A stretch of 24,962 bases of DNA from an uncultured Chthonomonadaceae bacterium. Its GTDB lineage: Bacteria; Armatimonadota; Chthonomonadetes; Chthonomonadales; Chthonomonadaceae. Under the pieces are notes generated by a model, which was not told where the DNA came from, ran no database searches, and saw nothing but the letters and a program-made list of their open reading frames with translations. Shown here piece by piece: positions 12,968 through 24,689 of this stretch (position 1 is its first letter; every line of letters begins with the position of its first letter). The stretch lies in assembly GCA_963835065.1 (NCBI GenBank), contig CAWIEK010000052.1, forward strand, positions 1 to 24,962, read 5' to 3'. Both the position numbers and the translations under genes were made by a program.

Positions 12968-13179
12968 GGAGATGGCGTTCCCAACGGTACCTTTACCGGC
13001 AGTTTGAACGCGCTTCCTTTTCCCCGCTGAAAAACCCTGCTGGCCCCTGTCCGGCCACTCCGCCCGCGAAAGCGCCCTTGCATCCGCCACAATGCCGTGG
13101 TTGAGAAATGTTTCTCGTTTCCAGCCTATTGGCTTGTTCCAGCCTGAGCGCAAGATGTTTTTTCAGGAGCGAAGTTGTC

Positions 13180-14247
13180 GTGCTTTTTTACCCTGTATTG
13201 CCTGCATTGCCAGTCATCCTGCGCGTTCTATTCCCGCATGACAAACCGGCATTGTCCGAATACCGAACACCGAACGCCGAACACCGCCCCGCGCATGTCG
13301 CGTCCTCTCCGGCTTCCACACCTGCTGGCATGGCGCGGATACCGGCGGGACGCTTTGCAATGGGATCGGATTTTCCGCAATTTACGGATGCGCGGCCTAT
13401 CCATGCCGTTACGCTGGACAGTTTTTACATGGATCGCGCGCCCGTGACCAATGCGCAGTTCGCGCGTTTTGTCCGGGCTGCGGGCTATGTGACGGTTGCC
13501 GAGCGCAAGCCCGACGCGCGCAATTTCCCCGGCGTTCCCGCCGACAAGCTCGTGCCCGGTTCCGTCGTGTTCCTGCCGCCCAAACGCGCCGTGCCCCTCG
13601 ACGATGTTTCGCAATGGTGGCGGTACGTGCCGGGCGCAAGCTGGAAACACCCGGAAGGGCCAAACAGCAGCCTGCATGGACGCGAACAGCATCCTGTCGT
13701 GCAGGTGTGTTGGGAAGACGCCGTTGCGTATGCGCGCTGGGCCGGTAAGCGATTGCCGACCGAAGCCGAATGGGAGTACGCGGCGCGGGGCGGGCTGGCG
13801 CGGCAGCCGTATGTGTGGGGCAAGGTGTTCCGTCCCGGCGGCAAGTACATGGCGAACACATTCCAGGGGCATTTCCCTAATCAAAATCAGAAATCGGATG
13901 GATGGGAGCGCACCTCACCCGTCACCCGTTTCCCCGCCAACGGTTTCGGGCTTTACGACATGGCCGGCAATGTGTGGCAGTGGTGCCAGGACTGGTATCG
14001 GCCCGATTATTTTGCGCACAGCCCGGTCCGCAACCCTTCCGGCCCCGCTGATAGCGCCGACCCGATGGAACCCGGCGTCCCCAAGCGGGTGCAAAAGGGC
14101 GGTTCCTTTTTGTGTTCGGAGCAATACTGCTGCCGCTATATGCCGGGCGGGCGCGGTAAGGGCGCGGTAGATACGGGCGCTTCTAATGTTGGTTTTCGCT
14201 GTGCGGTGTCCCTGCGGGATGCGGCGCGGGTACGAAGAGGCTTATAA
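13180..14247 (+). CDS. formylglycine-generating enzyme (SUMF1/FGE-sulfatase family)
   Basis: GRFAMGS, PVTNAQF, HPVVQVCWEDA, KRLPTEAEWEYAARGG, NGFGLYDMAGNVWQW, KGGSFLCSEQYCCRY (catalytic CxxxxC pair) and NVGFRC. The start is uncertain: GTG 13180 follows AGGAG, but the ORF is open from 13108. Confidence 0.9.
   Translation: MLFYPVLPALPVILRVLFPHDKPALSEYRTPNAEHRPAHVASSPASTPAGMARIPAGRFAMGSDFPQFTDARPIHAVTLDSFYMDRAPVTNAQFARFVRAAGYVTVAERKPDARNFPGVPADKLVPGSVVFLPPKRAVPLDDVSQWWRYVPGASWKHPEGPNSSLHGREQHPVVQVCWEDAVAYARWAGKRLPTEAEWEYAARGGLARQPYVWGKVFRPGGKYMANTFQGHFPNQNQKSDGWERTSPVTRFPANGFGLYDMAGNVWQWCQDWYRPDYFAHSPVRNPSGPADSADPMEPGVPKRVQKGGSFLCSEQYCCRYMPGGRGKGAVDTGASNVGFRCAVSLRDAARVRRGL
13256..13285 (+). repeat. 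heptamer tandem repeat (CCGAAYR x4) inside the FGE N-terminal linker
   Basis: CCGAATA CCGAACA CCGAACG CCGAACA, translated within SEYRTPNAEHR. Confidence 0.8.
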
Positions 14248-14267
14248 AAGGCTTAAAAGGAATACTT

Positions 14268-15704
14268 ATGCTGAAATGCCTGCTTGCAACCCTGTTTCTG
14301 TTGTGCGCGATTTTCCCCGCGCAATGCCAAACGCGCTCTGATACGCGCCCCAACATCATTTTTATTCTGGCCGATGATTTAGGCTATGGCGATCTGGGCA
14401 GTTACGGGCAGAAGTGGATACGGACGCCCAATTTGGATCGCATGGCGCGCGAGGGGATGCGCTTCACGCAGTTTTACGCGGGTTCCACCGTTTGCGCCCC
14501 TTCGCGCTGCGCCCTGATGACCGGCCTGCACACGGGGCACAGCATCGTGCGCGGCAACAACTCGTTCGGCCTGCGCCCCAATGAAAACACGATTGCCAAA
14601 ACGCTGAAGCAGGCGGGCTACCGCACGGGATTGATTGGCAAATGGGGGTTGGGCGACGAGGGCAGCGCGGGCGTCCCGCTGTGCCAGGGCTTCGATTATT
14701 TCTACGGCTACCTGAACCATATCCATGCCCACAACAATTATCCCCGCTTTTTGTGCCGCAACAACGGGCGCGTCCTTCTGCGCAACGTGGTTGCCAACGA
14801 GGGCCGCGATGGGCAGGGAATGGCGACCACGCGCCGACAGTACAGCAACGATCTGTTCGCGGGGGAAGCGCACCGCTACATTGACGCCAACAAGGACAAT
14901 CCCTTTTTCCTGTACCTCGCGTTTACGATTCCCCACGCCAACAACGAAGCGCGGCGCAACGGCATGGAAGTGCCCTCGCATGGCATGTACCGCGACAAAC
15001 TGTGGCCCCGCTCCGAAAAAGGCTATGCGGCCATGATTACCCGCCTGGACAGCTACGTCGGCAGCCTGATGGCGCATCTGCAGCGGCTCGGGCTGGACAA
15101 AAACACGCTGGTCATCTTTTCCTCGGACAACGGCCCGCACAACGAAGGCTACCACAACCCGCTGTTCTTCGGGTCGGGCGGTCCCTTGCGGGGTATCAAG
15201 CGGGACTTGTATGAGGGCGGCGTCCGCATCCCGATGATCGCGCGCTGGCCCGATACCATCCCTGCCGGCGTGGTTTCCAATCAGGTCGGCTGGTTCCCCG
15301 ACTTCTTCCCCACGCTTTCCCGGCTTGCCGGCGCGCAAACCCCCAGGGGTCTGGACGGCGTGAACCTGCTGCCCACCCTGTTCGGCCAGCCCAATCGCCA
15401 GAAACAGCATCCTTATCTGTACTGGGAATTCAACGAACGGGGATTTTCGCAGGCGGCGCGGGTTGGCGATTGGAAAGGCATCTATGTGAACCCGGGCATG
15501 CCCATGCAGTTGTTCGATCTGCGCTCCGACATGGGCGAAACGCGCGATGTCGCCGCCGAACATCCCGACGTGGTCGCGAAACTCCAAAAGGTGATGCAAA
15601 AGGCGCATGTCCCTGCCCCCAACTGGCAAGCGCCCGGCCAGAAGAGCCGCCTTCCCCTTTCCGCAACCCTCGCCGCCGCGCCCCCATCCCGCCCCGCCCG
15701 CTAA
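14268..15704 (+). CDS. secreted Cys-type (formylglycine-dependent) arylsulfatase-family protein
   Basis: Signal peptide, RPNIIFILADDLG, the CAPSR signature (CxPxR) with LMTG, GKWGLG, SSDNG, KRDLYEGGVR and LFDL..D.GE. Confidence 0.93.
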   Translation: MLKCLLATLFLLCAIFPAQCQTRSDTRPNIIFILADDLGYGDLGSYGQKWIRTPNLDRMAREGMRFTQFYAGSTVCAPSRCALMTGLHTGHSIVRGNNSFGLRPNENTIAKTLKQAGYRTGLIGKWGLGDEGSAGVPLCQGFDYFYGYLNHIHAHNNYPRFLCRNNGRVLLRNVVANEGRDGQGMATTRRQYSNDLFAGEAHRYIDANKDNPFFLYLAFTIPHANNEARRNGMEVPSHGMYRDKLWPRSEKGYAAMITRLDSYVGSLMAHLQRLGLDKNTLVIFSSDNGPHNEGYHNPLFFGSGGPLRGIKRDLYEGGVRIPMIARWPDTIPAGVVSNQVGWFPDFFPTLSRLAGAQTPRGLDGVNLLPTLFGQPNRQKQHPYLYWEFNERGFSQAARVGDWKGIYVNPGMPMQLFDLRSDMGETRDVAAEHPDVVAKLQKVMQKAHVPAPNWQAPGQKSRLPLSATLAAAPPSRPAR

Positions 15705-15744
15705 CCCCCTCCGCGCAACCCTGCTTTTGTCCCATCAAACACAC

Positions 15745-15780
15745 TTCCGGCGCTTCTGAAACTTCTCAGAAACGCCGGAA
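15745..15780. terminator. hairpin between convergent genes (probable terminator)
   Basis: TTCCGGCG-c-TTCTGA / TCAGAA-a-CGCCGGAA stem with one mismatch and a 6-nt loop. Confidence 0.6.
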
Positions 15781-15803
15781 TAACGATCCCTTGACTTTCT
15801 CGT

Positions 15804-16775
15804 TTTTCAGGTCAATCATTTTTTGTTTCCTGTTCCTGTGGCTGGCTTGGATGAAGCAGTTCGCTAATGGACGCTTCCTGAGCATTGGAAACACCCCGCA
15901 ACAAGGTTTCACCGGGCACAGAGGCAGCATCCGAGGCGCGTACCAACGTTCGGCTTTGTTGGGCTTCGGCCCATTGTGACTCCAGGCTTTTCAAGCAATT
16001 CTCCGCCGCCAGATAGATGGGAACATTGACGGACGCGGCTCCCAGATTCTTCGCGGTAATGCGCTTCAATGCAGGCACGGCATCCACATCGCCGATAGTC
16101 CGTAAACAGTGGATGATAGCCAGCACGAACTCCTGCTTGGTGTTGTGATTTCCGTTCATCGCCCGATACAAGCTTTTCCTGGCCTCTGCATCCAACAAAG
16201 CCGAGCCATTCGGTCCTGCTATTGGCAGAAGGCGCGTCAGGACATATTCTATTTCCTGCGCAACAATATGCGTACTCGTGTGGAGCGCTTTGGCGAGACA
16301 GCCGATAGATTGCTTGTCCTCTGCAGTCTTCAAAACGGCGATGCCTTGAACTACAGCGCGCCCTGTGTCGGCTTTTAGTTTTTCGACTTTGAAAACGTAT
16401 GCTGCCCATAGGACGCCGCCTACAATCCCAACGACGCCGGAACTAATCTGGCGTTCGACGCAAGACACGGTAAAAAGAAAAATAAATATAACAAGTGGTA
16501 TACCTATTATAGGCAAACCGTTAATGCGTATGTTCGTAGGTGAGAGCAGCCATGTTAAGTTGTGCAGGCGGGCGGTTTTGTCCAGTCGAGCAATCCATTC
16601 AGAATTGATGATATTCGGCTCACCATCTTGTGTAGAAACAACGAAGTTGTTCGTTGTTTGAACCTTTCCATCTTCGGACATCACGTAAGCGCTCCTGTCT
16701 GAATCCTTATCGAACTGCCTGTCGCAGCAAATCCTATTCCTATAATACCTGCGTTGACAACTCTTTTCAGGTCAA
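15804..16775. repeat. 12-bp direct repeat TTTTCAGGTCAA (15804-15815 and 16764-16775) flanking one gene
   Basis: Both copies are exact and each is preceded by TTGAC, giving TTGAC-N15-GTCAA and TTGAC-N12-GTCAA. The left copy contains the enclosed gene's stop codon. Confidence 0.6.
15812..16684 (-). CDS. hypothetical membrane protein: two TM helices followed by HEAT/PBS-like helical repeats
   Basis: Two hydrophobic segments, then DKQSIGCLAKAL, FVLAIIHCLRTIGDVDAVPALKRI and AAENCL, and a C-terminal TLVRAS...ETLLRG...ELLHP. The DNA is visibly AT-richer than its neighbours. AGGAG RBS upstream. Confidence 0.7.
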   Translation of the reverse strand: MMSEDGKVQTTNNFVVSTQDGEPNIINSEWIARLDKTARLHNLTWLLSPTNIRINGLPIIGIPLVIFIFLFTVSCVERQISSGVVGIVGGVLWAAYVFKVEKLKADTGRAVVQGIAVLKTAEDKQSIGCLAKALHTSTHIVAQEIEYVLTRLLPIAGPNGSALLDAEARKSLYRAMNGNHNTKQEFVLAIIHCLRTIGDVDAVPALKRITAKNLGAASVNVPIYLAAENCLKSLESQWAEAQQSRTLVRASDAASVPGETLLRGVSNAQEASISELLHPSQPQEQETKND

Positions 16776-16783
16776 ATTATAGT
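16754..16783 (+). promoter_or_regulatory. sigma70 promoter for the PSD1 gene
   Basis: TTGACA (16754-16759)-18 bp-TATAGT (16778-16783). Confidence 0.6.
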
Positions 16784-16963
16784 TTTAGGTAGCAGAAACC
16801 CGTTACTTGTAGGTTTGTAACAAAGCGCCTTTTCGTTTGCAAAGGTCGGATTCCTGCCAAATTGGGAAGTCAGCCAACGCCAAACGTGGTAAGATAGAAG
16901 AGGATGTTTTCTTTTCAATGTCTTAATTCTGATGTTGTTTTCGCTTCCATGAGGAATACTCCT

Positions 16964-19900
16964 ATGTTTTTCGGGTGTGCGCGTCGGGGCGCAAGCTTTG
17001 CGGTTCTGGCGCTTTTCAATATGCTGCTTCCTGGCGGGGCTTTCGCGCAGGCGGGTTCTCCTTCCAACATCAAGCCTGCTCAGGCCGGAGCCGGGATTAT
17101 GCAAGCCGGAGTCGAGTTTACGCGGGACGTACAGCCGCTGTTGAAGGCGCATTGTTTTCAGTGTCACGGCGGAACGCAGGCGCAGGGCGGGCTGCGGTTG
17201 GAAACGCGGACGTTCAGATGCTGGCGGGCGGCACTTCGGGAACCGCGCTGGTTCCGGGGAACGGCGATAAAAGCCTGTTGCTGACGCGGATTTTGGGACA
17301 TGGCGGCAAGGCGCGGATGCCCCTGGGCTTCGCGCCGTTTACCGCTAGCAGCAAACCGCTGTTATCCGCAACTGGATCAATGGGGGCGCGGTTTGGCCGG
17401 ACAGTAAAAATGTTAAAAAGCACTGGGCGTATGTGGCTCCCGTTCGCCCGCGCGTTCCCAACGTGAAGAACGCGGTTTGGACGCGCAATCCCATTGACCG
17501 CTTCATCCTTGCCCGCCTGGAAAAAGAAGGCGTGTCTCCTGCTCCCGAAGCCGACAAGATTACCCTGCTGCGCCGCGTGACGCTGGACCTGACCGGCCTG
17601 CCGCCCACGACCGGCGAAACCGACGCTTTTCTGGCGGACAAATCCCCGAACGCTTATGAGAAAGTGGTAGACCGCCTGCTTGCCAGCCCGCATTATGGCG
17701 AGCGCATGGCATTGCCCTGGCTGGACGCCGCCCGCTACGCCGACAGCAACGGCTTTCAGCAGGACGGCGACACGTACCAGTACATCTGGCGGGATTGGGT
17801 TGTCCGCGCCTTCAACGCCAACATGCCCTTCGACCGCTTCACCATCGAGCAGCTTGCCGGCGACCTGCTGCCCAATCCTACGGACGACCAGAAGATCGCC
17901 ACAGCCTTCAATCGCTGCCACCTGCTCAACGGCGAGGGCGGCGCGATTGCCGAAGAGCAGCGCAATGTGATTCTATTTGACCGCGTGGACGTGACCGCAA
18001 CCACCTGGCTCGGCGCGACACTGGCCTGCGCCCAGTGCCACGACCACAAATATGATCCGCTCACGCAAAAAGACTACTACTCGTTCATGGCGTATTTCAA
18101 CAACGTGCCGGAATCGGGAACGCCGCCGTTCGGAGGCCAGTACCGCATAGCCGATCCGTGGATGACAGCCGGCACTGACGCGGAAAACGCCAAATTGAAA
18201 GCCTTTGAAGCGCAGTTGGCGAGCGCGAAATCGCAGGCCGACAATTACGAGCGCGAACACGGGCCGGAACTGCAAGCCGCGCAAACCGCATGGGAAGCCA
18301 TCACCATAGCCAATGCCCTCCCCGCTCCAAAACTGGATTCGTGGAGCGTGGTCGGGCCTTTTCCCGCCGATTCGTTCGACGCGGCGTATGATACGGCTTT
18401 CGTTACTGAAAAGCAGACCGAACGGGCGCAAATTTATGCCGAGGGAACCCCAAACGGTAAATTCAAATGGACGCCGCGCCCGGAATGGACGGACGGCAAA
18501 GCGGTTGTGCTGACGGGAGAAAACACGGCCCTCTATTTGTACCGCGTGATTCATGCGCCACAGGCGATGCCCCTGTCTTTGTCGTTCGGCAGCGACGACG
18601 CCATTAAAGTATGGTTCAACGGAAAGCCGATTGTGGCGGATAAGGTCACGCGAGCCGTTGCGCCCGATCAGGAAAAAGTCACGGTCAATTTGCGGGCGGG
18701 AGATAACGTCCTGCTGATGAAGATCGTTAATGGCGGCGGTATCGGCGGCTTTTACTTCAAAGCGCAGGAAACCGGCCTGCCCGCCAACATCGCCACCCTT
18801 CTGAAAACGCCCCCGGCTTCACGCTCCGCAGTAGACGCCAAAACGGTACGCGATTACTTTCTTGCTAACAACCCGCCGGTGGAACTGAAAGCGGCGCGGG
18901 ACAAAGCCGCAAGCGCGCAAAAGGAACTGGACGCTTACCGCATGAGCCTGCCCCGCGTGATGATTATGTCGGACGCGCGCCCGCGCAAAACGCATGTTTT
19001 GCAGCGCGGCAACTACGAAATGCCGGGCGAGGAAGTGACGCCTGCCACGCCCGTCAATCTGTCGCCCCTGCCTGCCGACGCGTCCCCCAACCGGCTCGGC
19101 CTGGCGCAATGGCTGGTCAGCGCCAACAACCCACTCACAAGCCGGGTACAGGTCAACCGTTACTGGCAGATGTTCTTCGGCGTGGGACTGGTGAAAACGT
19201 CGGAGAATCTGGGAACGCAAAGCGACCCGCCCACGCACCCGGAATTGCTGGACTGGCTTGCCGTCGAATTCCGCGAATCGGGCTGGAATGTGAAGCAGAT
19301 GCACCGCCTTATGGTGACGAGCGCCACGTACCGACAAACTTCCAAAACCACGCCCGCCCTGCGGCAGCGCGACCCGGAAAACAAGTTGCTGGCGCGGGCC
19401 GCGCGGTTCCGCCTGCCGTCCCTGATGCTGCGCGACGTAGCCTTAGCCTCCAGTGGCCTGCTCAACGCGCAAATCGGCGGCAAGCCCGTGTACCCCTACC
19501 AGCCGAAAGGCATTTGGGACGGCCTTGCCATCACCAACGAGCGCGATTTCACGTACCCGCAATCCAAAGGCGCGGATTTGTTCCGCCGCAGCCTGTACAC
19601 CTTCTGGCGGCGCACCGTTGCGCCCGCCAATATGTTCGACGCGAGTACGCGCACAACGTGCAAAGTGCGCCTGCCCGTGACCAGTACGCCCCTGTACGCC
19701 CTGACCACGCTCAACGACGTAACCTGGGTGGAAGCGGGACGCGCCCTTGCCGAACACGTCCTCCACGACGTTCCCAACGCTCCCGGCAGTTCCGGCAAGG
19801 GCGCAAACGCCGGTTCCGCCGCCAACAGCGTAAACGTCGGTTCCGCCAATGCCAATGCCGATGCCCGCCTGACGGAAGCGTTCCGCCGCGTGTGCGTCCG

Positions 19901-20108
19901 CCGCCCGCTTCCCGATGAACTGCGCGTCCTGCGCCGCAGTCTGGATCGCGCCCTTGCCGCGTACCGCGCCGATCCTTCTGCCGCCGACGCTTACCTGAAA
20001 GCCGGTGACAGCCCCCGCGATACAACGCTCAACCCCATCGAACACGCCGCGTATGCCAGCGTCTGCCTCGCCATTTACAATTTGGATGAAGCGCTCACAC
20101 GGGAGTAG
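16964..20108 (+). CDS. PSD1/planctomycete cytochrome c protein (PSCyt1 + DUF1549 + beta-sandwich insert + DUF1553), split by two frameshifts near 17210 and 17345
   Basis: Three consecutive frames join into one protein. Signal peptide + VEFTRDVQPLLKAHCFQCHG...GGLRL; then QMLAGGTSG..LVPG..DKSLL..RI...RMP; then IRNWINGGAVWP...HWAY..P, NPIDRFI, LLRRVTLDLTGLPP, YGERMA..WLDAARYADSNG, CAQCHDHKYDP, NPLTSRVQVNRYW, HPELLDWLA, RRSLYTFWRRT and NLDEALTRE*. Confidence 0.88.
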
Positions 20109-20109
20109 G

Positions 20110-20148
20110 AACCTCACCCCGGGCGTCCATTTATGGACACCTTCTCTT
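20110..20148 (+). repeat. possible CCTCACCCC...CCTTCTC-type REP half-element with an inner hairpin
   Basis: AACCTCACCCCGGGC-GTCCATTTATGGAC-ACCTTCTCTT starts 2 bp after the PSD1 stop. Confidence 0.35.
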
Positions 20149-20149
20149 G

Positions 20150-20380
20150 ATTGCTCCTCGTTTGCCGGGTATTTTCAATGCTTGCTGTGGAATGGCCGTA
20201 TCCTGTCTGTTGCCGGGTACTGAAAGTACCCGGCAGGACAAAACAAGCGTCTTTCAGACGTGGGAATCTTGATGTAGAGAATCGCGTCTGTAGGACGCTT
20301 GCACTTTCCTGCCGGGTACTTTCAGTACCCGGTCAGTATTTCACAGCAAGCATTGAAAACACCCGACAGACTGGAACAAT
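20150..20380. mobile_element. ~230-bp nested palindromic element (REPIN/MITE-like, non-autonomous)
   Basis: Outer imperfect IRs of about 43 bp (20150-20193 / 20338-20380, core TTTTCAATGCTTGCTGTG). Inner perfect 26-bp IRs CCGGGTACTGAAAGTACCCGGCAGGA (20213-20238 / 20307-20332), each itself a hairpin. Innermost CAAGCGTCTTTCAGACG / CGTCTGTAGGACGCTTG. Confidence 0.7.
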
Positions 20381-20405
20381 GTGAGCGCCCTGAATTGAAA
20401 CGCAA

Positions 20406-21236
20406 TCAGGTATCAAGGAGCAGGAGGCGCGTCAGGCGGGCGAGGGCGAGGAGGCCGGGGTTGTCTGCCGTCCATTGCACGAGGGGGAGGTTCTGGCAGA
20501 ACAGGGCAAGGGCGTAGCGCCTGCCGTCCGGCGACTCTACCAATCCTACATCGTTGCGCACGGGGTTAACGGCGCCGGTTTTGCCCATGTATTTCCAGTC
20601 TTCGGGCAGCAGGCGGGGAATGGCGTCGCGGTAGAACTGCCCGGCAAGGATATGCAGAATGTCTTTGCTGGTGGCTTCGTCGCCGATCTGCCCCTCGGCA
20701 AGCCGAACCATCAGGGACAGCATCTCATCCGGCGTGGTTACTCCCAATCCGTACAATTTACTGGCTTCCGTGTCCGGCGCGTAGGCTTTGCGGAAGCAGG
20801 TGGTAATGGGCAGGCTGAGCGAACGCATCCGGGCGTTAATGGCATCCGCGCCTACATGCTCAATCACCATGTTCGTGCCGGTGTTGTCGGATACGACAGT
20901 CATCAGGGTACAAACGTCGCGCAGGGACAATTGCAGCCCCGCCGTCATCTGCGTCAGCACTCCCGAACCATCCACTTTCTCCGCTTCGGTCAGCGTCAGG
21001 GGTTCCTCCCACGTCAAACTGCCTTCCCGAACACACAGCGCGACATGAACCAATATCGGCAGCTTGATAACGCTGGCCGTTTTGCACTTATCCCCACTCT
21101 TCCAGCCCACCATATCCCCGGTTTGCAAATCCTTCACGGCAAAATGCAGCGTTCCCCCACACGCCTGTTCCAGTTCCGAAACAAGAGACGCAAGTTCATC
21201 GTTAAAAAAGCGGCTTAAAGGTGATTGGTTGGTCAT
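20406..21236 (-). CDS. class A beta-lactamase-like serine hydrolase (Beta-lactamase2 family), no signal peptide
   Basis: ASVIK (SxxK), VSDN (SDN loop), TTPDEM, GKTG and RNDVG. Confidence 0.85.
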   Translation of the reverse strand: MTNQSPLSRFFNDELASLVSELEQACGGTLHFAVKDLQTGDMVGWKSGDKCKTASVIKLPILVHVALCVREGSLTWEEPLTLTEAEKVDGSGVLTQMTAGLQLSLRDVCTLMTVVSDNTGTNMVIEHVGADAINARMRSLSLPITTCFRKAYAPDTEASKLYGLGVTTPDEMLSLMVRLAEGQIGDEATSKDILHILAGQFYRDAIPRLLPEDWKYMGKTGAVNPVRNDVGLVESPDGRRYALALFCQNLPLVQWTADNPGLLALARLTRLLLLDT

Positions 21237-21303
21237 GGTACTTATAAGGACGGTTATTCGCTACGAAGCGGAGGGACGCTGAAAGTTTGTAGTTCCTGCA
21301 TCC

Positions 21304-21333
21304 CTATCAACTAAGAACTATCAACTATCAACT
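21304..21333. repeat. heptamer tandem repeat CTATCAA x4
   Basis: CTATCAA CTAAGAA CTATCAA CTATCAA, immediately after the stop (21336) of the minus-strand gene. Confidence 0.75.
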
Positions 21334-21335
21334 CT

Positions 21336-22233
21336 TTAACCGCTCACGGCCTTGAAATCGGAGGGACGATCTAAATCGGTGGCGAGTTCGGGGTCTTGAG
21401 AAATGTAAGCATTGGCTTTGCCGCCGAGCAGCCGTCCGATGCGGGCTTCGAGCAGAGGCAGGGTGAGCAGGCCGGGATTGAGTTTTTGCGACAGAACGAG
21501 ACGGCCTACCGTGCCGAAGCCGAGCATGGCGGCGAGTTTGAGCGGGCTTTTGCGCGCGGCATACGCCCCTGCGATGCGGCGTTCCTGCGCGAATAAAAAC
21601 CGGGGGCGCACCAGCGCGAGATTGCCGCCCGTAAATTCTCCCTTCGCTGAGTTTCAGGGCCGTGCGCTTCACACCGGGAAACCGGGCATAACACGCCTGC
21701 ACGGGCACAATCGGCCATACAATGTCGCTGTCATGCGCCTGCGCATACGCCAATCCGCCCCGGGCAAAATCACCGGCAACGCGGCCCGTCATAAACGGCA
21801 GGTCGGACGTGGCTATCAGCACGTATGGCGCGTCGGCAAACTGCGCCAACCCCGCAAACACATTGGCAACGAAATCCCCCGCATCCGGCACACTGATATA
21901 ATCCTTACTCGGCGGCATATCGCCGACAACCGCGAGCGGGCCGAGCGGGAGGTTCTCTTCCCCGCCCGTCAGCAGCGCGTCTACGACATGCCGCAGCAGG
22001 GTCTTGCCGTTGATGGTGACAAGCGCGCGGCTGCTTTGCCCCGTCAGCGTCTGCATATCCGCTTTGGCCTTGCCGCCGGCGAGAATAACGGAAGGCAAGG
22101 ATGAAGGATGAAGGATGAAGGATGAAGGCATTGTTGATTGCCGATTGCCGATTGCCGATTGAGTTCCTTCTGTTCCCTGTTCCCTTTTCCCTGTTCCCTC
22201 TTCTTCTTTTCTCCTTTTCTCCTTTTCTATCAT
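21336..22233 (-). CDS. MobA-like NTP transferase domain protein, frameshifted near 21640, with a repeat-encoded N-terminal extension
   Basis: VILAGG, RALVTINGKTLLRHVVDAL, TSDLPF and FPGVKRT.LKLSEG. After a one-base shift in the G-run (21640-21642) it continues EFTGGNLALVRP...RKSPLKLAAMLG...ELATDLDRPSD. The ATG overlaps the ispE stop (ATGA). Confidence 0.8.
22097..22228. repeat. composite array of four short-repeat families inside the NTP-transferase 5' end
   Basis: AAGGATG x4+ (22097-22128), GATTGCC x3+ (22136-22161), TGTTCCC x4 (22171-22198, one variant unit) and CTTTTCTC x~3 (22206-22228). Confidence 0.85.
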
Positions 22234-23171
22234 AACGTAACCTCCTCCCTTCCCTCTGTCGCTTGCGGATTGGATGTGGCGCGGAGCAGGGTGTGGGCGG
22301 CGTGGGTTTGCGGATATTTTTTGCGGAGCAGGGCGGCGATGCGCTCCGCCTCGGCAGGGGTAGGGACAATACCGTAAAGCGCGGAGCCGCTGCCGCAAAG
22401 CCGCGCGATCAGGCAGCCGGCCATCATCAATTCGTCGTGCAGCCAGGCGAGTTTGGGATAGTGTTCAAAAATGGGCTGTTCAAAATCGTTGCTTTGAAAG
22501 GCGAGAACGCGGTCATGGTCGCCGCTGCGCAGGGCTTCCTCCATGCGCTTGGTGGCGCGGTGCGATTTGCGGTCGGGCTGCGCGTCGAGCGCATTGTACG
22601 CCCAGGCGGTGGAAACGCTTTCTTCCGGTTTCACAACCACAAGGGCAAAGTTCGGGGCATCGGGCAGCGAAGTGAGGTTTTCGCCCCGGCCCCGTGCCGT
22701 CGCCGTGCCGCCCATCAGGAAAAACGGCACGTCGGAACCTAATTGCGCGGCAAGCGGCTTTAAGGGCAGTTCGGCGTCCGTCAGGCCGAACAGGTTTTGA
22801 ACGCCGCGCAGGGCAGTGGCCGCGTCGCTGCTGCCGCCGCCCAACCCCGCCTGCGAGGGAATCCGCTTGATTAAATGAATTTCTGCGCCGCATTCCAGGA
22901 TATGCCCGCTTTCCCGCGCCTTTTCCATAACAAGCAGGGCGGCGCGTACAACGAGATTGGTGGCATCCGTAGGCACGTCGGGCGCGTCCGGCGCGTCACA
23001 GGTAAACCCGATACCGGGCTGTTCCCGGCGCGTAAAATGCAGCGTGTCATGCAGGGAAATCGTCTGCATCACGCTGGCAATATCATGGTAGCCGTCCGCC
23101 CGCTTACTGAACACATCCAGCGTCAGGTTGATCTTTGCATACGCATGGTAAACCAGAGGTAAACTTGACAT
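22230..23171 (-). CDS. ispE: 4-diphosphocytidyl-2-C-methyl-D-erythritol kinase (GHMP kinase, MEP pathway)
   Basis: AKINLTL, DGYHDI, KRIPSQAGLGGGSSDAA, LGSDVPFF, GRGE, NDFE and CGSGS. Start at ATG 23171 (alternative GTG 23183). Confidence 0.95.
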   Translation of the reverse strand: MSSLPLVYHAYAKINLTLDVFSKRADGYHDIASVMQTISLHDTLHFTRREQPGIGFTCDAPDAPDVPTDATNLVVRAALLVMEKARESGHILECGAEIHLIKRIPSQAGLGGGSSDAATALRGVQNLFGLTDAELPLKPLAAQLGSDVPFFLMGGTATARGRGENLTSLPDAPNFALVVVKPEESVSTAWAYNALDAQPDRKSHRATKRMEEALRSGDHDRVLAFQSNDFEQPIFEHYPKLAWLHDELMMAGCLIARLCGSGSALYGIVPTPAEAERIAALLRKKYPQTHAAHTLLRATSNPQATEGREEVTL

Positions 23172-23220
23172 AAGAACAAACACCTATTGCCTTCACGGAC
23201 GTATACGCGCCTGAAAGCAT

Positions 23221-23255
23221 CCTAAAACCCTAAAACCTTAAAACCCTAACACCCT
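23221..23255. repeat. octamer tandem repeat CCTAAAAC x4
   Basis: CCTAAAAC CCTAAAAC CTTAAAAC CCTAACAC CCT, just after the stop (23259) of the upstream minus-strand gene. Confidence 0.75.
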
Positions 23256-23258
23256 GCT

Positions 23259-24689
23259 TTACGGCATTTGAAAGCGCGTCGCGTCGCGTATCGTGTCACT
23301 GGGCGCAAAGGCAAACCAGTGAAACGGTATTTCGATGCTGGAACCGGCGGCAAGCGTGTCGCCGCGCCCCTCGCCCACAGCCTGCGCTCCCAACACAAAC
23401 GTAACCAGGCCATCCGCAAGCGGCAGGCGGCTCCACTTCCACGCGGGGAACGGCGGGTCGGAAGGCCAGGCAACCCCGAACGTGACGCCGCCGTTACGTC
23501 CGGCAGCCAACCGCGCATCATCGGGAATCAGCGCGGCAGGTTCGGGCAGAAGCGAGGGCGAGCCATCGGCGCGGGGAACGGGCAGGGTCTTATCGTCCGA
23601 AACGGTTTGCAGGGCGGGCAGTTGGATTCCCGAAAGGCGCAGAGGCCGCAGGGCGGTAAAATGGACTTTGCCGTTGAGAACGCACGTATCGGGCCGGGAT
23701 TCCAGCGTAATTTCCGCGCGGCAGGCATTACCGACACTGCCCGTCAGCGTGAGTGTGGCGCTGGTTTTATCTTCGCGGGAGCGTACCTGCTGACAGCGAA
23801 ACGTTTGCCACCAGGGCGATTGCCCGTCCTCGCCCACGCACACGCGCAGGGGAACCAGGCTGCCCGCCACGCTGCGCCAACCCGCGCCGTCTTTCACGCC
23901 CAACACCAGCCCGGTTTCCCGCCGCTCACCCATCTGAACCCGCGCGGCCACGCGGCTGTTGAGCAGCAAACTCGTCGCGCCCTGTTCCCCCGCATGTGCC
24001 AGCGTATCTTTTATCACAGGCACATCCCCAAGCGTCAGCGGGCGCGGCAATCGTGGCACGACGGCGAAAGCGAGTTGGGTGTTGGGTGTTCGGTATTCGG
24101 TATTCGGTGTTGGGGTGTTCTGTTCCCTGTTCCCTGTTCCCTGTTCCCTCCCTGCCCCCTGCTCTGCCTTTTCCAGCACGACGCCCGCGACAAGGGCGCT
24201 GCGGCCTTCGGAGGGGGCGAAGCGCCAGCGGTACGCGACGGCCTGGCCGGGAGCGAGGGCGGGAAGAACTGGCAGCAGGTTGCCGTTGGTGTAGTCCAGC
24301 CCGGAAATGGGGTAGCAGCGCAGGCGCAGCAGGTTTTCGGGCAGGGGCGCGCTGCCCATATTGCGCACCACGCACAGCAGCACGGCGTTTTCCGCCCCGA
24401 CAACATACCCCCGTTCCGCCGCAAACGTTTCAATCCGAACGTCGTTGGTGGCGGGTGGCTGGTGGTTGGTGGTTAGGGCAACGGGTATTGGGGGTTGCGC
24501 TGTTGCTGTTCCCTGTTCCCTGTTCCCTGTTCCCTGCCTTTCCTTTTCTCCTTTTCTTTCCGCTCGCGCGAGAACAGCGCCCAGGCTCAGGCAGGCGCAG
24601 GCGGCGAGGGCGGCGACCCGATAGCGTGGGCGGCGGGCGGCGGGGATGGCACAGCAAAGGGCAGAACGTGAAAAGCGGGGCACGGGCAT
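23259..24689 (-). CDS. hypothetical secreted protein (beta-rich; possible CARDB/Ig-like first domain) with repeat-encoded linkers
   Basis: Long ORF with Arg-rich plus hydrophobic signal-like segment (RRPRYRVAALAACACLSLGAVLARA) and an Ig-like VRNMGSAPL...LAPGQAV pattern. Start taken at ATG 24689 (ORF open to 24875), with TATAAT on the minus strand at 24746-24741. Confidence 0.7.
   Translation of the reverse strand: MPVPRFSRSALCCAIPAARRPRYRVAALAACACLSLGAVLARAERKGEKERQGTGNREQGTATAQPPIPVALTTNHQPPATNDVRIETFAAERGYVVGAENAVLLCVVRNMGSAPLPENLLRLRCYPISGLDYTNGNLLPVLPALAPGQAVAYRWRFAPSEGRSALVAGVVLEKAEQGAGREQGTGNREQNTPTPNTEYRTPNTQLAFAVVPRLPRPLTLGDVPVIKDTLAHAGEQGATSLLLNSRVAARVQMGERRETGLVLGVKDGAGWRSVAGSLVPLRVCVGEDGQSPWWQTFRCQQVRSREDKTSATLTLTGSVGNACRAEITLESRPDTCVLNGKVHFTALRPLRLSGIQLPALQTVSDDKTLPVPRADGSPSLLPEPAALIPDDARLAAGRNGGVTFGVAWPSDPPFPAWKWSRLPLADGLVTFVLGAQAVGEGRGDTLAAGSSIEIPFHWFAFAPSDTIRDATRFQMP
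24074..24148. repeat. two adjacent heptamer arrays inside the CDS
   Basis: GTTGGGT/GTTCGGT/ATTCGGT x5-6 (24074-24120) next to TGTTCCC x4 (24121-24148), encoding REQGTGNREQNTPTPNTEYRTPNTQ. Confidence 0.85.
24447..24558. repeat. heptamer/octamer arrays inside the CDS after the signal peptide
   Basis: GGTGGYK x4 (24447-24474), TGTTCCC x4 (24507-24534) and CCTTTTCT x2 (~24542-24557). Confidence 0.85.

Follow-up and report, generated by a model that had tools for sequence, protein, structure and literature searches.

What produces the tandem repeats of 7 and 8 nucleotides that crowd one half of a contig from an uncultured Chthonomonadaceae bacterium, and do those that lie in genes serve to vary the encoded proteins? 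The window analysed here is the whole of that contig (C52, 24,962 bp), part of genome G000, which comprises 8.0 Mb in 71 contigs with 57% G+C. The host is a soil bacterium, and its nearest named relatives are uncultured Chthonomonadaceae and Chthonomonadales metagenome-assembled genomes of the phylum Armatimonadota. The initial annotation of the window had counted about 12 short arrays from at least seven unit families, and proposed that a trans-acting, templated process inserts or replaces them and so diversifies protein linkers. Tandem Repeats Finder (TRF), used for window and genome alike, gives exactly 12 arrays of period 7 or 8 in positions 13256-24557, belonging to eight canonical families, and essentially none in the first 13 kb. 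Tandem heptamers of this kind are known as the short tandemly repeated repetitive (STRR) heptanucleotides of heterocystous cyanobacteria (Calothrix/Anabaena). Arrays of heptamers, known since 1990, are found in excess in many bacterial phyla; to our knowledge their origin and spread are unexplained, polymerase slippage being the only standing idea.

We lean towards the reading that the window samples a genome-wide set of STRR-like modules, which are spread, and replaced at existing sites, by non-local copying rather than grown by slippage. Unrelated genes of the window share units, as the initial annotation had noticed: three arrays consist of CTGTTCC and two of AGAAAAGG, and CCGAAYA is found in two genes. 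The eight window families (AACACCG/AATACCG, AACTATC, AAGGATG, AATCGGC, AACAGGG with three arrays, AAAAGGAG with two, AAAACCCT and AACCACC) have between 24 arrays and, for AACTATC, 293 arrays each across G000. Units peculiar to their sites, which had been named as evidence to the contrary, are thus not what the TRF census returned; the families are shared genome-wide.

The non-redundant census of G000 holds 2,801 period-7 arrays (2,322 with at least three copies, 1,721 with at least four) and 975 period-8 arrays, with 380 and 517 for the neighbouring periods 6 and 10. At period 7 there are 1,330 perfect tracts of at least three units and at period 8 there are 123, compared with 31, 32 and 6 at periods 5, 6 and 9. 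Our null model, an order-5 Markov simulation of 4 Mb, contained no such tract for periods 6-9. The set used below consists of the 2,792 arrays of period 7 or 8 with at least three copies. The 2,322 period-7 arrays use 144 canonical units, of which the top 30 account for 88%. The top five alone (AACTATC 293, AACAGGG 235, AATGCCT 234, ACTACTG 145 and AAGGATG 125) account for 44%.

The arrays are also alike in size. Period-7 TRF lengths (n = 2,322) peak at 30-33 bp with 1,241 arrays; 520 measure 23-27 bp, 94 measure 37-40 bp and 20 measure 44-47 bp. Among perfect period-7 tracts, 31 of 2,298 are longer than 34 bp. Period-8 lengths peak at 34-37 bp, setting aside a separate family of three copies and 24 bp. 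Because the heptamers peak at 30-33 bp and the octamers at 34-37 bp, the constant is the number of units, about 4.4, rather than a length in bases. Nearly all commoner period-7 families have a mean copy number of 4.0-4.8, and the range across those listed is 3.8-5.0.

Phase is similarly restricted. Of the 61 perfect ACTACTG tracts, 58 begin CTACTGA and 52 are one identical 33-mer, and a single starting phase accounts for 57 of 64 AAGGATG and 71 of 98 AACTATC tracts. The commonest exact 30-mers recur at 33-41 unlinked sites, and identical 30- or 33-mers overall at 33-52. Arrays lie next to each other more often than expected, 14% of neighbour gaps being at most 15 nt versus an expected 0.5-2%, and runs of up to five different families occur.

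The relatives bring the number of genomes to 41 with G000; G001 and G002 are congeners and G023 represents another genus. Array density was sampled in 26 relatives, with 8.5-400 kb each and mostly 8.5-100 kb. Per 100 kb it is 35 in G000, 28.5 in G002, 34 in G023, 23.5 in G021 (from 8.5 kb only) and 12.5 in G019, and 0-5 in the other 22 sampled genomes, including 4.0 in the congener G001. The size mode is common to relatives (30-32 bp in G002, 32 bp in G023) and the families differ. Arrays of about 4.4 heptamers, often as inverted pairs after genes, are also found in IspE loci of Pyrinomonadaceae/Blastocatellia, Clostridia and a Ruminococcus flavefaciens isolate. These data bear on the idea that an assembler collapsed tandem repeats to a fixed length. 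Such collapse would leave a sharp length ceiling like that in G000, whose assembly does contain 1-nt indel errors or variants. We nevertheless give it practically no credence, since the 30-32-bp mode recurs in G002 on a 910-kb contig and in G023 on a 2.96-Mb contig, arrays of about 4.4 copies are found in unrelated phyla, one of the genomes there being that of an isolate, the assemblies of relatives contain longer arrays (up to 28 copies) around the gene cassettes described below, and arrays lie in frame within conserved genes.

Families turn over between close relatives. ACGAGAT, the top family of G002, is represented by 20 arrays in 400 kb of that genome and by none in the 8 Mb of G000; the top four families of G000 number 2, 0, 0 and 0 in the same 400 kb. 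An ACTACTG 26-mer has 212 hits in G000, five in G001, one in G002 and none in the 38 other relatives. We compared orthologous sites using 275 G000 proteins that the 400-kb G002 sample matches at 55% identity or more, 49 of them array-bearing in one or both species. Flanks align well at 15 sites, and TRF finds arrays in both species at nine of these. As we read the alignments, five of the nine carry entirely different families, and four share one module and differ otherwise. In a protein that is 89% identical, for example, AAAAGGAG+AGAGGGGG in G000 stands opposite ACTCATC+AATGATG in G002. We did not find a clean empty site among the 15; of the other six, several are degenerate and array-like and one is a false positive. 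The comparison of orthologues that the initial annotation had suggested therefore returned family swaps at shared sites and no presence/absence insertion. It indicates that the array sites in proteins are old and shared, and that their content has been replaced. In the window, the CTTCATC array at 22097-22128 is also present in the G002 orthologue, which has an ACGAGAT-family array in place of the CAATCGG array at 22136-22161, and an AATCGGC array stands in G002 where G000 has GGGAACA at 24120-24149.

Reads from other strains were compared as low-depth Logan contigs of four runs (X1-X4). Since contigs from many loci pile onto the arrays, joints there are not assignable to the window locus, and what could be used was one 8-nt gain, one replaced spacer of 121 nt and one 1-nt indel. 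The replaced spacer comes from a strain about 93% identical (run X3, one 1,975-nt contig), in which 131 other letters take the place of positions 23141-23263, including the GTTTTAGG array, and both flanking genes align. The gain, also in run X3, is one additional 8-nt unit in the array at 24541-24557 (CTTTTCTT inserted behind 24550).

Over short times the arrays are stable. Self-BLAST with all 71 contigs as queries revealed 47 near-duplicate segment pairs in G000 (291 kb, 93-99.7% identical, mostly at contig ends, e.g. C30:49571-66592 versus C21:1-16992), which suggests strain heterogeneity or redundant assembly in the genome bin. Among these, two 7-nt indels lie at or near the 119 query-side arrays of at least 2.5 copies, and three lie elsewhere. 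Within the 98 arrays of at least three copies that are fully inside pairs, 23 of 2,980 positions (0.77%) are substituted, versus 1.80% outside arrays and 2.42% in non-array intergenic DNA. The arrays thus remain more uniform than the DNA around them, an outcome that either selection or re-copying could bring about. With a peak at 4.4 units and rare indels of unit size, they differ from slippage-driven contingency loci, which have open-ended copy number and frequent unit steps.

In-place polymerase slippage, with selection or mutation bias making the same units and sizes recur, would be another source of such arrays. A preference for heptamers set by polymerase contact length, a hypothesis credited to Mrazek and co-workers, is quoted in PMC4692102. 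Slippage does occur, as seen from the two to five one-unit indels in the near-duplicates and the additional 8-nt unit in run X3, and variation between strains in 7-nt steps is reported in PMC4679880 and PMC4990558. Many families are related by single bases (AACACCC, AACACCG and AATACCG) and some arrays are mixed (13256 and 24074), which mutation and homogenisation by slippage could produce. We still regard slippage as the whole explanation as highly unlikely, because five units make up 44% of the 2,322 period-7 arrays, identical 30- and 33-mers in the same phase stand at tens of unlinked sites, and the lengths form a sharp peak instead of a decaying tail. Whole families are moreover present in one congener and absent from the other, and unrelated units occupy the same orthologous site. 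Every slip would also shift the frame in the 584 arrays that lie in coding regions, yet the host genes are open. The initial annotation had likewise held that local slippage alone is hard to reconcile with the recurrence of units, and the length peak, the family phases, the 30/33-mers at 33-52 sites and the congener differences bear this out.

The observations just given in favour of slippage count equally against non-local copying, and others do so too. We found no insertion event, no pair of empty and filled sites, no donor-recipient pair and no copying enzyme; nor was a target-site duplication seen, in tabulations confined to the base preferences of the flanks. The start phase of AACAGGG, the main coding family, is less sharp (AGGGAAC 66, CAGGGAA 34 and ACAGGGA 31 of 148 tracts), and fixed phase is partly inherited, some arrays belonging to larger repeated elements such as the ACTACTG hairpins and AACTATC leaders. 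Functional selection, and not re-copying, could be what slows change inside arrays. PF05635, the gene family of the cassettes treated below, is present in 10 of the 22 array-poor relatives and was rejected as a sufficient driver. The samples from the relatives are small, mostly 8.5-100 kb, and gene positions depend on a crude custom gene caller, which yields 6,212 genes and 75% of G000 as coding and hence under-calls genes.

As a mechanism, we suggest that new modules would arise by templated copying, either copy-paste or gene-conversion-like, preferentially beside older arrays or in their place. Occasional one-unit slippage and point mutation would then modify them. Selection would remove those copies that bring stop codons or hydrophobic peptides, so that sense-oriented, in-frame, hydrophilic inserts of 10-11 residues alone would persist in genes, within linkers that already tolerate variation. 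Of the templated insertion or replacement put forward by the initial annotation, the shared units, fixed size and phase and family swaps speak in favour, and the missing insertion event, empty site, donor and enzyme speak against.

Most arrays are not in genes. Of the 2,792, 738 lie inside called genes, 931 upstream of a start with a stop between, 364 upstream with an open frame, 538 downstream of a gene and 221 far from genes, so that about 60% are intergenic on the crude gene calls. An inverted partner of the same family accompanies 837 arrays, usually at a gap of about 55 nt and always in one polarity. In the listed intergenic families, 18-33% of arrays are followed within about 40 nt, in one orientation only, by a Shine-Dalgarno (SD) motif and a start codon, versus a background of 3.5%. 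In the ribosomal-protein (spc-type) operon at C49:675000-679000, ACTACTG- and AATGCCT-armed hairpins with 30-33-bp arms and loops of about 55 nt stand between successive cistrons. Intergenic inverted pairs would form stems of 30-33 bp like those that RNase III cuts in rRNA intervening sequences, and oriented single arrays upstream of ribosome-binding sites would serve as leader elements. Many AACTATC arrays have a conserved 'ggttgaacgttggtagttc' before them and 'aagggaggtgc...ATG' after them (e.g. C16:112764-112793, C16:147015-147044 and C22:95471-95501).

The hairpins invite comparison with repetitive extragenic palindromes (REP), bacterial interspersed mosaic elements (BIME) and miniature inverted-repeat transposable elements (MITE), which are likewise high-copy intergenic hairpins between co-directional genes with species-specific bursts. 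The arms in G000, in contrast, are tandem heptamers and remain nearly perfect between diverging loops. Across the 64 ACTACTG hairpins, mean pairwise identity of the loops is 42%, whereas 90 of 128 arms measure exactly 33 bp and 52 of 128 carry the exact consensus. Whole-length likeness, as expected of a MITE, is therefore lacking, and near identity is confined to the inverted arms. No link to a RAYT-type or other transposase emerged, no test having been aimed at one.

It is nonetheless conceivable that the arrays are MITE- or REP-like hairpin transposons moved by a transposase in trans, with singles as decayed halves, kept as hairpins for RNA processing or stability and as leaders. The 837 partnered arrays with their gap mode near 55 nt and fixed polarity, the ACTACTG burst in one species only, the hairpins between ribosomal-protein cistrons and the oriented SD motifs and start codons fit this, as do the heptamers reported from the stem that RNase III cuts in the Coxiella intervening sequence (PMC4990558). 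We consider it unlikely, since diverged loops between near-perfect arms are the reverse of what recent transposition of whole elements leaves, 70% of arrays have no inverted partner, and coding arrays are single and stand in direct series of different families. Nor was transposase-like cargo seen between the arms of 157 same-family inverted pairs with gaps of 120-3,000 nt. Among these, only PF05635 genes look like true small cassettes, and the remaining pairs are neighbouring hairpins around ordinary genes or belong to the separate family of three octamer copies. Inspected by eye only, the loop halves showed no convincing -35/-10 pair of a sigma-70 promoter. The separate family comprises about 67 arrays of exactly three copies of the 8-mer GCCTCTGT/ACAGAGGC (or ACACAGAG) as inverted ends. 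The interiors of 120-270 nt share Lys/Arg-rich pseudo-open reading frames, which gives the elements a MITE-like look (e.g. C29:40401-40682 and C57:44785-45083 of G000).

Genome G000 encodes three PF05635 (23S_rRNA_IVP) proteins, and all three genes are bracketed by inverted arrays, of ACTACTG (C8), AAAAGGAG (C33) and GGGAACA/GGTTACA (C25). The same holds for 17 of 17 further PF05635 genes in 13 relatives, making 20 of 20 in 14 genomes. Each has the layout of an intervening-sequence (IVS) cassette, a PF05635 open reading frame in inverted repeats with a stem of at least about 28 bp. The arms of one cassette share a unit, and the unit differs among cassettes. In G000 and G023, the arm units belong to some of the most abundant dispersed families; the two cassettes of G023 bear the two commonest dispersed families of the sample, but those of G002 do not. 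Cassettes of array-poor genomes are bracketed as well, with arms that reach 17-28 copies. The three G000 cassettes sit between protein-coding genes, outside rRNA genes. None of the eight scanned window proteins belongs to PF05635, so the window holds cassette-free arrays only.

Above the Pfam cut-off, PF05635 is present in five of the five array-rich or intermediate genomes and in 10 of the 22 array-poor ones, and it is absent from the remaining 12. It could be necessary for array richness, these counts coming from related, non-independent genomes. The co-occurrence with four-helix-bundle proteins that the initial annotation had proposed to test thus holds at the level of the flanks, but fails to separate array-rich from array-poor genomes. 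We can imagine that the S23p/PF05635 cassette is itself a DNA writer, its arms being master copies of which about five heptamer registers would be copied from arm to arm and elsewhere, overwriting older arrays in intergenic DNA and in protein linkers alike. The brackets at all 20 genes, the unit shared by both arms, the abundance of arm units among dispersed arrays and the constant number of about 4.4 copies for 7- and 8-mers favour this idea, which we nevertheless hold to be quite unlikely. If it is true, the cassette would be a mobile 'micro-cassette' writer of a novel type, and the STRR puzzle, 35 years old, would have its answer.

PF05635 proteins, which we take to be in the same family as the Avd protein of diversity-generating retroelements (DGR), also prompt the question whether a reverse transcriptase and an Avd-like four-helix-bundle protein rewrite the linkers adaptively. 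That array content at fixed protein sites differs between congeners would agree with such a system. The two RVT_1 genes of G000 lie on C49 and C50, away from the PF05635 genes on C8, C25 and C33, so that neither adjoins an Avd-like gene and reverse transcriptases are rejected as the driver. Furthermore, non-coding arrays make up about 60% of the total, change within arrays is slower than in their flanks at 1-7% divergence, and no pair of template and variable repeats came up, in analyses with no search aimed at them. A DGR-like origin is accordingly very improbable. Hairpins beside the reverse transcriptase genes are explained by operon spacers. At C49:679200-683500, the reverse transcriptase gene has as neighbours a gene that we read from its translation as Cas1-like and other CRISPR-type genes. 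The second, of 476 aa (C50:52482-56022), neighbours a 660-aa protein read as SWIM/BRCT-like, and looks like part of a defence system.

Loss of mismatch repair or of a hairpin nuclease was also rejected as the cause of array richness. We found mutS1 (TIGR01070) in 41 and sbcD (TIGR00619) in 38 of the 41 genomes, array-rich and array-poor alike. In G000, mutS (C37:163551-166162) is split into two model pieces; the reading frame changes near 164,030-164,100, and AAAGGCA x5.1 forms an array-like insert at 164139-164175. In G002, mutS appears as four frame-shifted pieces. The split mutS genes are probably due to 1-nt indel errors of long reads; real decay is the alternative.

Do the arrays within genes serve to vary proteins? 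Arrays robustly in frame within genes, with at least 40 called codons on either side, number 584 in 266 genes, about a fifth of all arrays. About 4% of the genes of G000 carry in-frame, probably translated repeat inserts of 10-11 residues, a point to bear in mind in annotation and in the alignment of protein families. Where both orientations of a family contain stop codons (AATGCCT, ACTACTG and AAAACCCT), its arrays are practically never found in genes. Families free of stops both ways have a strong sense bias (AACAGGG 148:15, AACACCC 47:2, AATCGGC 34:0, AAGACAG 34:0 and AAAATCG 24:0). In seven of seven such families the commoner orientation is the one with the more hydrophilic heptapeptide, e.g. 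NREQGTG over PCSLFPV.

The placement in tolerant positions reported by the initial annotation is confirmed for the window: the arrays lie in the post-signal linker of the FGE-sulfatase, the N-terminal extension of the NTP-transferase and two linkers of the hypothetical protein encoded at 23259-24683, and two intergenic arrays (21304 and 23221) begin 3 nt past stop codons. The hypothetical protein has a match in 39 of the 40 relatives searched, that is in 40 of 41 genomes with G000. Its two array blocks fall exactly in the post-signal and inter-domain linkers, and in other genera these linkers are Pro/Ser/Ala-rich and variable in length. In G001, the array-poor congener, the FGE orthologue carries a signal peptide and, at the position of the G000 array, a linker free of repeats. 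For the NTP-transferase, G000 and G002 both keep a GGAGG motif together with an ATG that overlaps the stop codon of IspE (ATGA). From this ATG to the domain the arrays are in frame in both, with extensions of 46 (G000) and 30 (G002) residues made of different arrays. Translation of the extension may be claimed with modest support, since in-frame agreement in both genomes would arise by chance about once in nine cases.

A role in writing peptide linkers, the purpose that the initial annotation had assigned to the arrays, is unsupported, because about 60% of them are intergenic, those in genes keep the hydrophilic orientation, and the linkers pre-exist in array-poor relatives. The in-gene arrays look like survivors of selection in pre-existing linkers, and adaptive linker diversification is not supported.

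The features of the window are collected in Table 1. The AGAAAAGG array starts 2 nt past the ATG at 22233-22231. The NTP-transferase gene is broken at 21639-21643, with open reading frames 21336-21611 and 21328-22398 in different frames. Contigs of runs X1, X2 and X4 have one base fewer at 21643, so the break is probably an assembly indel or a strain-specific frameshift.

Table 1. Genes and tandem arrays in the second half of the window (x, number of unit copies).
Feature	Position	Strand	Called by	Remarks
FGE-sulfatase gene	13108-14247	+	Pfam	FGE domain from residue 73
CCGAACA (CCGAAYA) x4.4	13256-13286	+	TRF	post-signal-peptide linker of FGE-sulfatase
Sulfatase gene	14268-15704	+	Pfam	
PSCyt2/PSD1 protein gene	17433-20108	+	Pfam	
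beta-lactamase-family protein gene	20406-21236	-	Pfam	
CTATCAA (AACTATC family) x4.3	21304-21333	.	TRF	intergenic, between NTP-transferase stop and beta-lactamase-family gene, upstream of the latter
MobA-like NTP-transferase gene (NTP_transf_3)	about 21336-22233	-	Pfam	frame break near 21640 in assembly
AAGGATG (sense CTTCATC) x4.6	22097-22128	-	TRF	encodes PSSFILHPSS, directly N-terminal to NTP_transf_3 domain
GATTGCC (sense CAATCGG) x3.7	22136-22161	-	TRF	in frame, likely N-terminal extension of NTP-transferase
CTGTTCC (sense GGGAACA) x4.9	22170-22203	-	TRF	NTP-transferase N-terminal extension
sense AGAAAAGG octamer array	22204-22228	-	TRF	TRF row CCTTTTCT x6.0 at 22183-22228 overlaps the GGGAACA array
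IspE-like GHMP kinase gene	22230-23183	-	Pfam	
CCTAAAAC/GTTTTAGG octamer array x4.4	23221-23255	.	TRF	spacer from stop of 23259-24683 gene to IspE start
secreted two-domain hypothetical protein gene	23259-24683	-		no Pfam family; two variable linkers hold five arrays
GTTCGGT (mixed AACACCC/AACACCG/AATACCG) x6.6	24074-24120	-	TRF	inter-domain linker of 23259-24683 protein
CTGTTCC (sense GGGAACA) x4.3	24120-24149	-	TRF	inter-domain linker of 23259-24683 protein; encodes GTGNREQ
GTTGGTG (sense AACCACC) x4.4	24444-24474	-	TRF	post-signal-peptide linker of 23259-24683 protein
CTGTTCC (sense GGGAACA) x4.4	24506-24536	-	TRF	post-signal linker of 23259-24683 protein
TCCTTTTC (sense AGAAAAGG) x2.1	24541-24557	-	TRF	post-signal linker of 23259-24683 protein

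The repeat kind itself is already known. Like STRR sequences, the arrays of G000 are tandem 7-nt units in several families per genome (the top five with 125-293 arrays each), dispersed over many loci and mostly intergenic. The original STRR definition refers to filamentous heterocystous cyanobacteria, whereas G000 belongs to the Armatimonadota. It differs further in its 35 arrays per 100 kb, its quantisation at about 4.4 units, the hundreds of arrays in frame in genes and the octamers that behave alike.

Three further systems from the literature bear comparison. The TAACTGA repeats of marine Beggiatoaceae, cyanobacteria and Bacteroidetes (MacGregor 2015, PMC4679880) are oriented runs of 2-6 tandem heptamers that end a few nt upstream of start codons and occur in ribosomal-protein operons; horizontal spread is suspected there without a stated mechanism. 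The intergenic arrays of G000 resemble them in their one-orientation placement before an SD motif and start codon. In contrast to the one unit type described in PMC4679880, where related heptamers were rarely repeated, G000 has about 30 major families, inverted pairs and coding copies. The GGGAATC and GGGGA(T/C)T repeats of Xanthomonas and Nostoc (Rehm et al. 2015, PMC4692102) are over-represented intergenic heptamer arrays, some as inverted pairs, with extensive differences in length and sequence among close species at the same intergenic sites. They are G-rich and were studied as quadruplex formers, whereas most G000 families lack G-tract units. The Coxiella burnetii IVS (Warrier et al. 2016, PMC4990558) consists of a small S23p/PF05635 four-helix-bundle gene enclosed by inverted repeats of about 28 bp that form a stem. 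The stem region contains tandem heptamers, RNase III cuts at the first repeat, and strains differ by one heptamer. S23p is reported as a homopentameric ring, from a Xanthomonas structure cited in PMC4990558. The 20 of 20 PF05635 genes inside inverted heptamer or octamer arrays correspond to this layout, but the G000 cassettes lie between protein-coding genes, their arm unit varies, and like arrays occur thousands of times without the gene.

Among the papers listed by the literature searches we did not find a report of heptamer or tandem repeats in Armatimonadota or Chthonomonas; the supplements of PMC4679880 and PMC4692102 may hold copy-number distributions that bear on the quantisation. Four features appear to be undescribed there: a host from the Armatimonadota, quantisation at 4.4 units, in-frame translation on such a scale, and the swapping of families at orthologous protein sites. 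With about 2,800 arrays, and close relatives that are either array-rich with other families or array-poor, G000 is an unusually rich test bed. Any mechanism has to account for arrays of about 4.4 units irrespective of unit length, one fixed phase per family, turnover at the same site, slow change within arrays and the brackets around S23p genes. If the copying is enzymatic, it would be a natural writer of short inserts.

The PSD1 protein of the window contains a further repetitive stretch at 19789-19865. It is of low complexity, rich in Gly, Ser, Ala and Asn, with periods of 27 nt and 6 nt, and lies outside the heptamer system.

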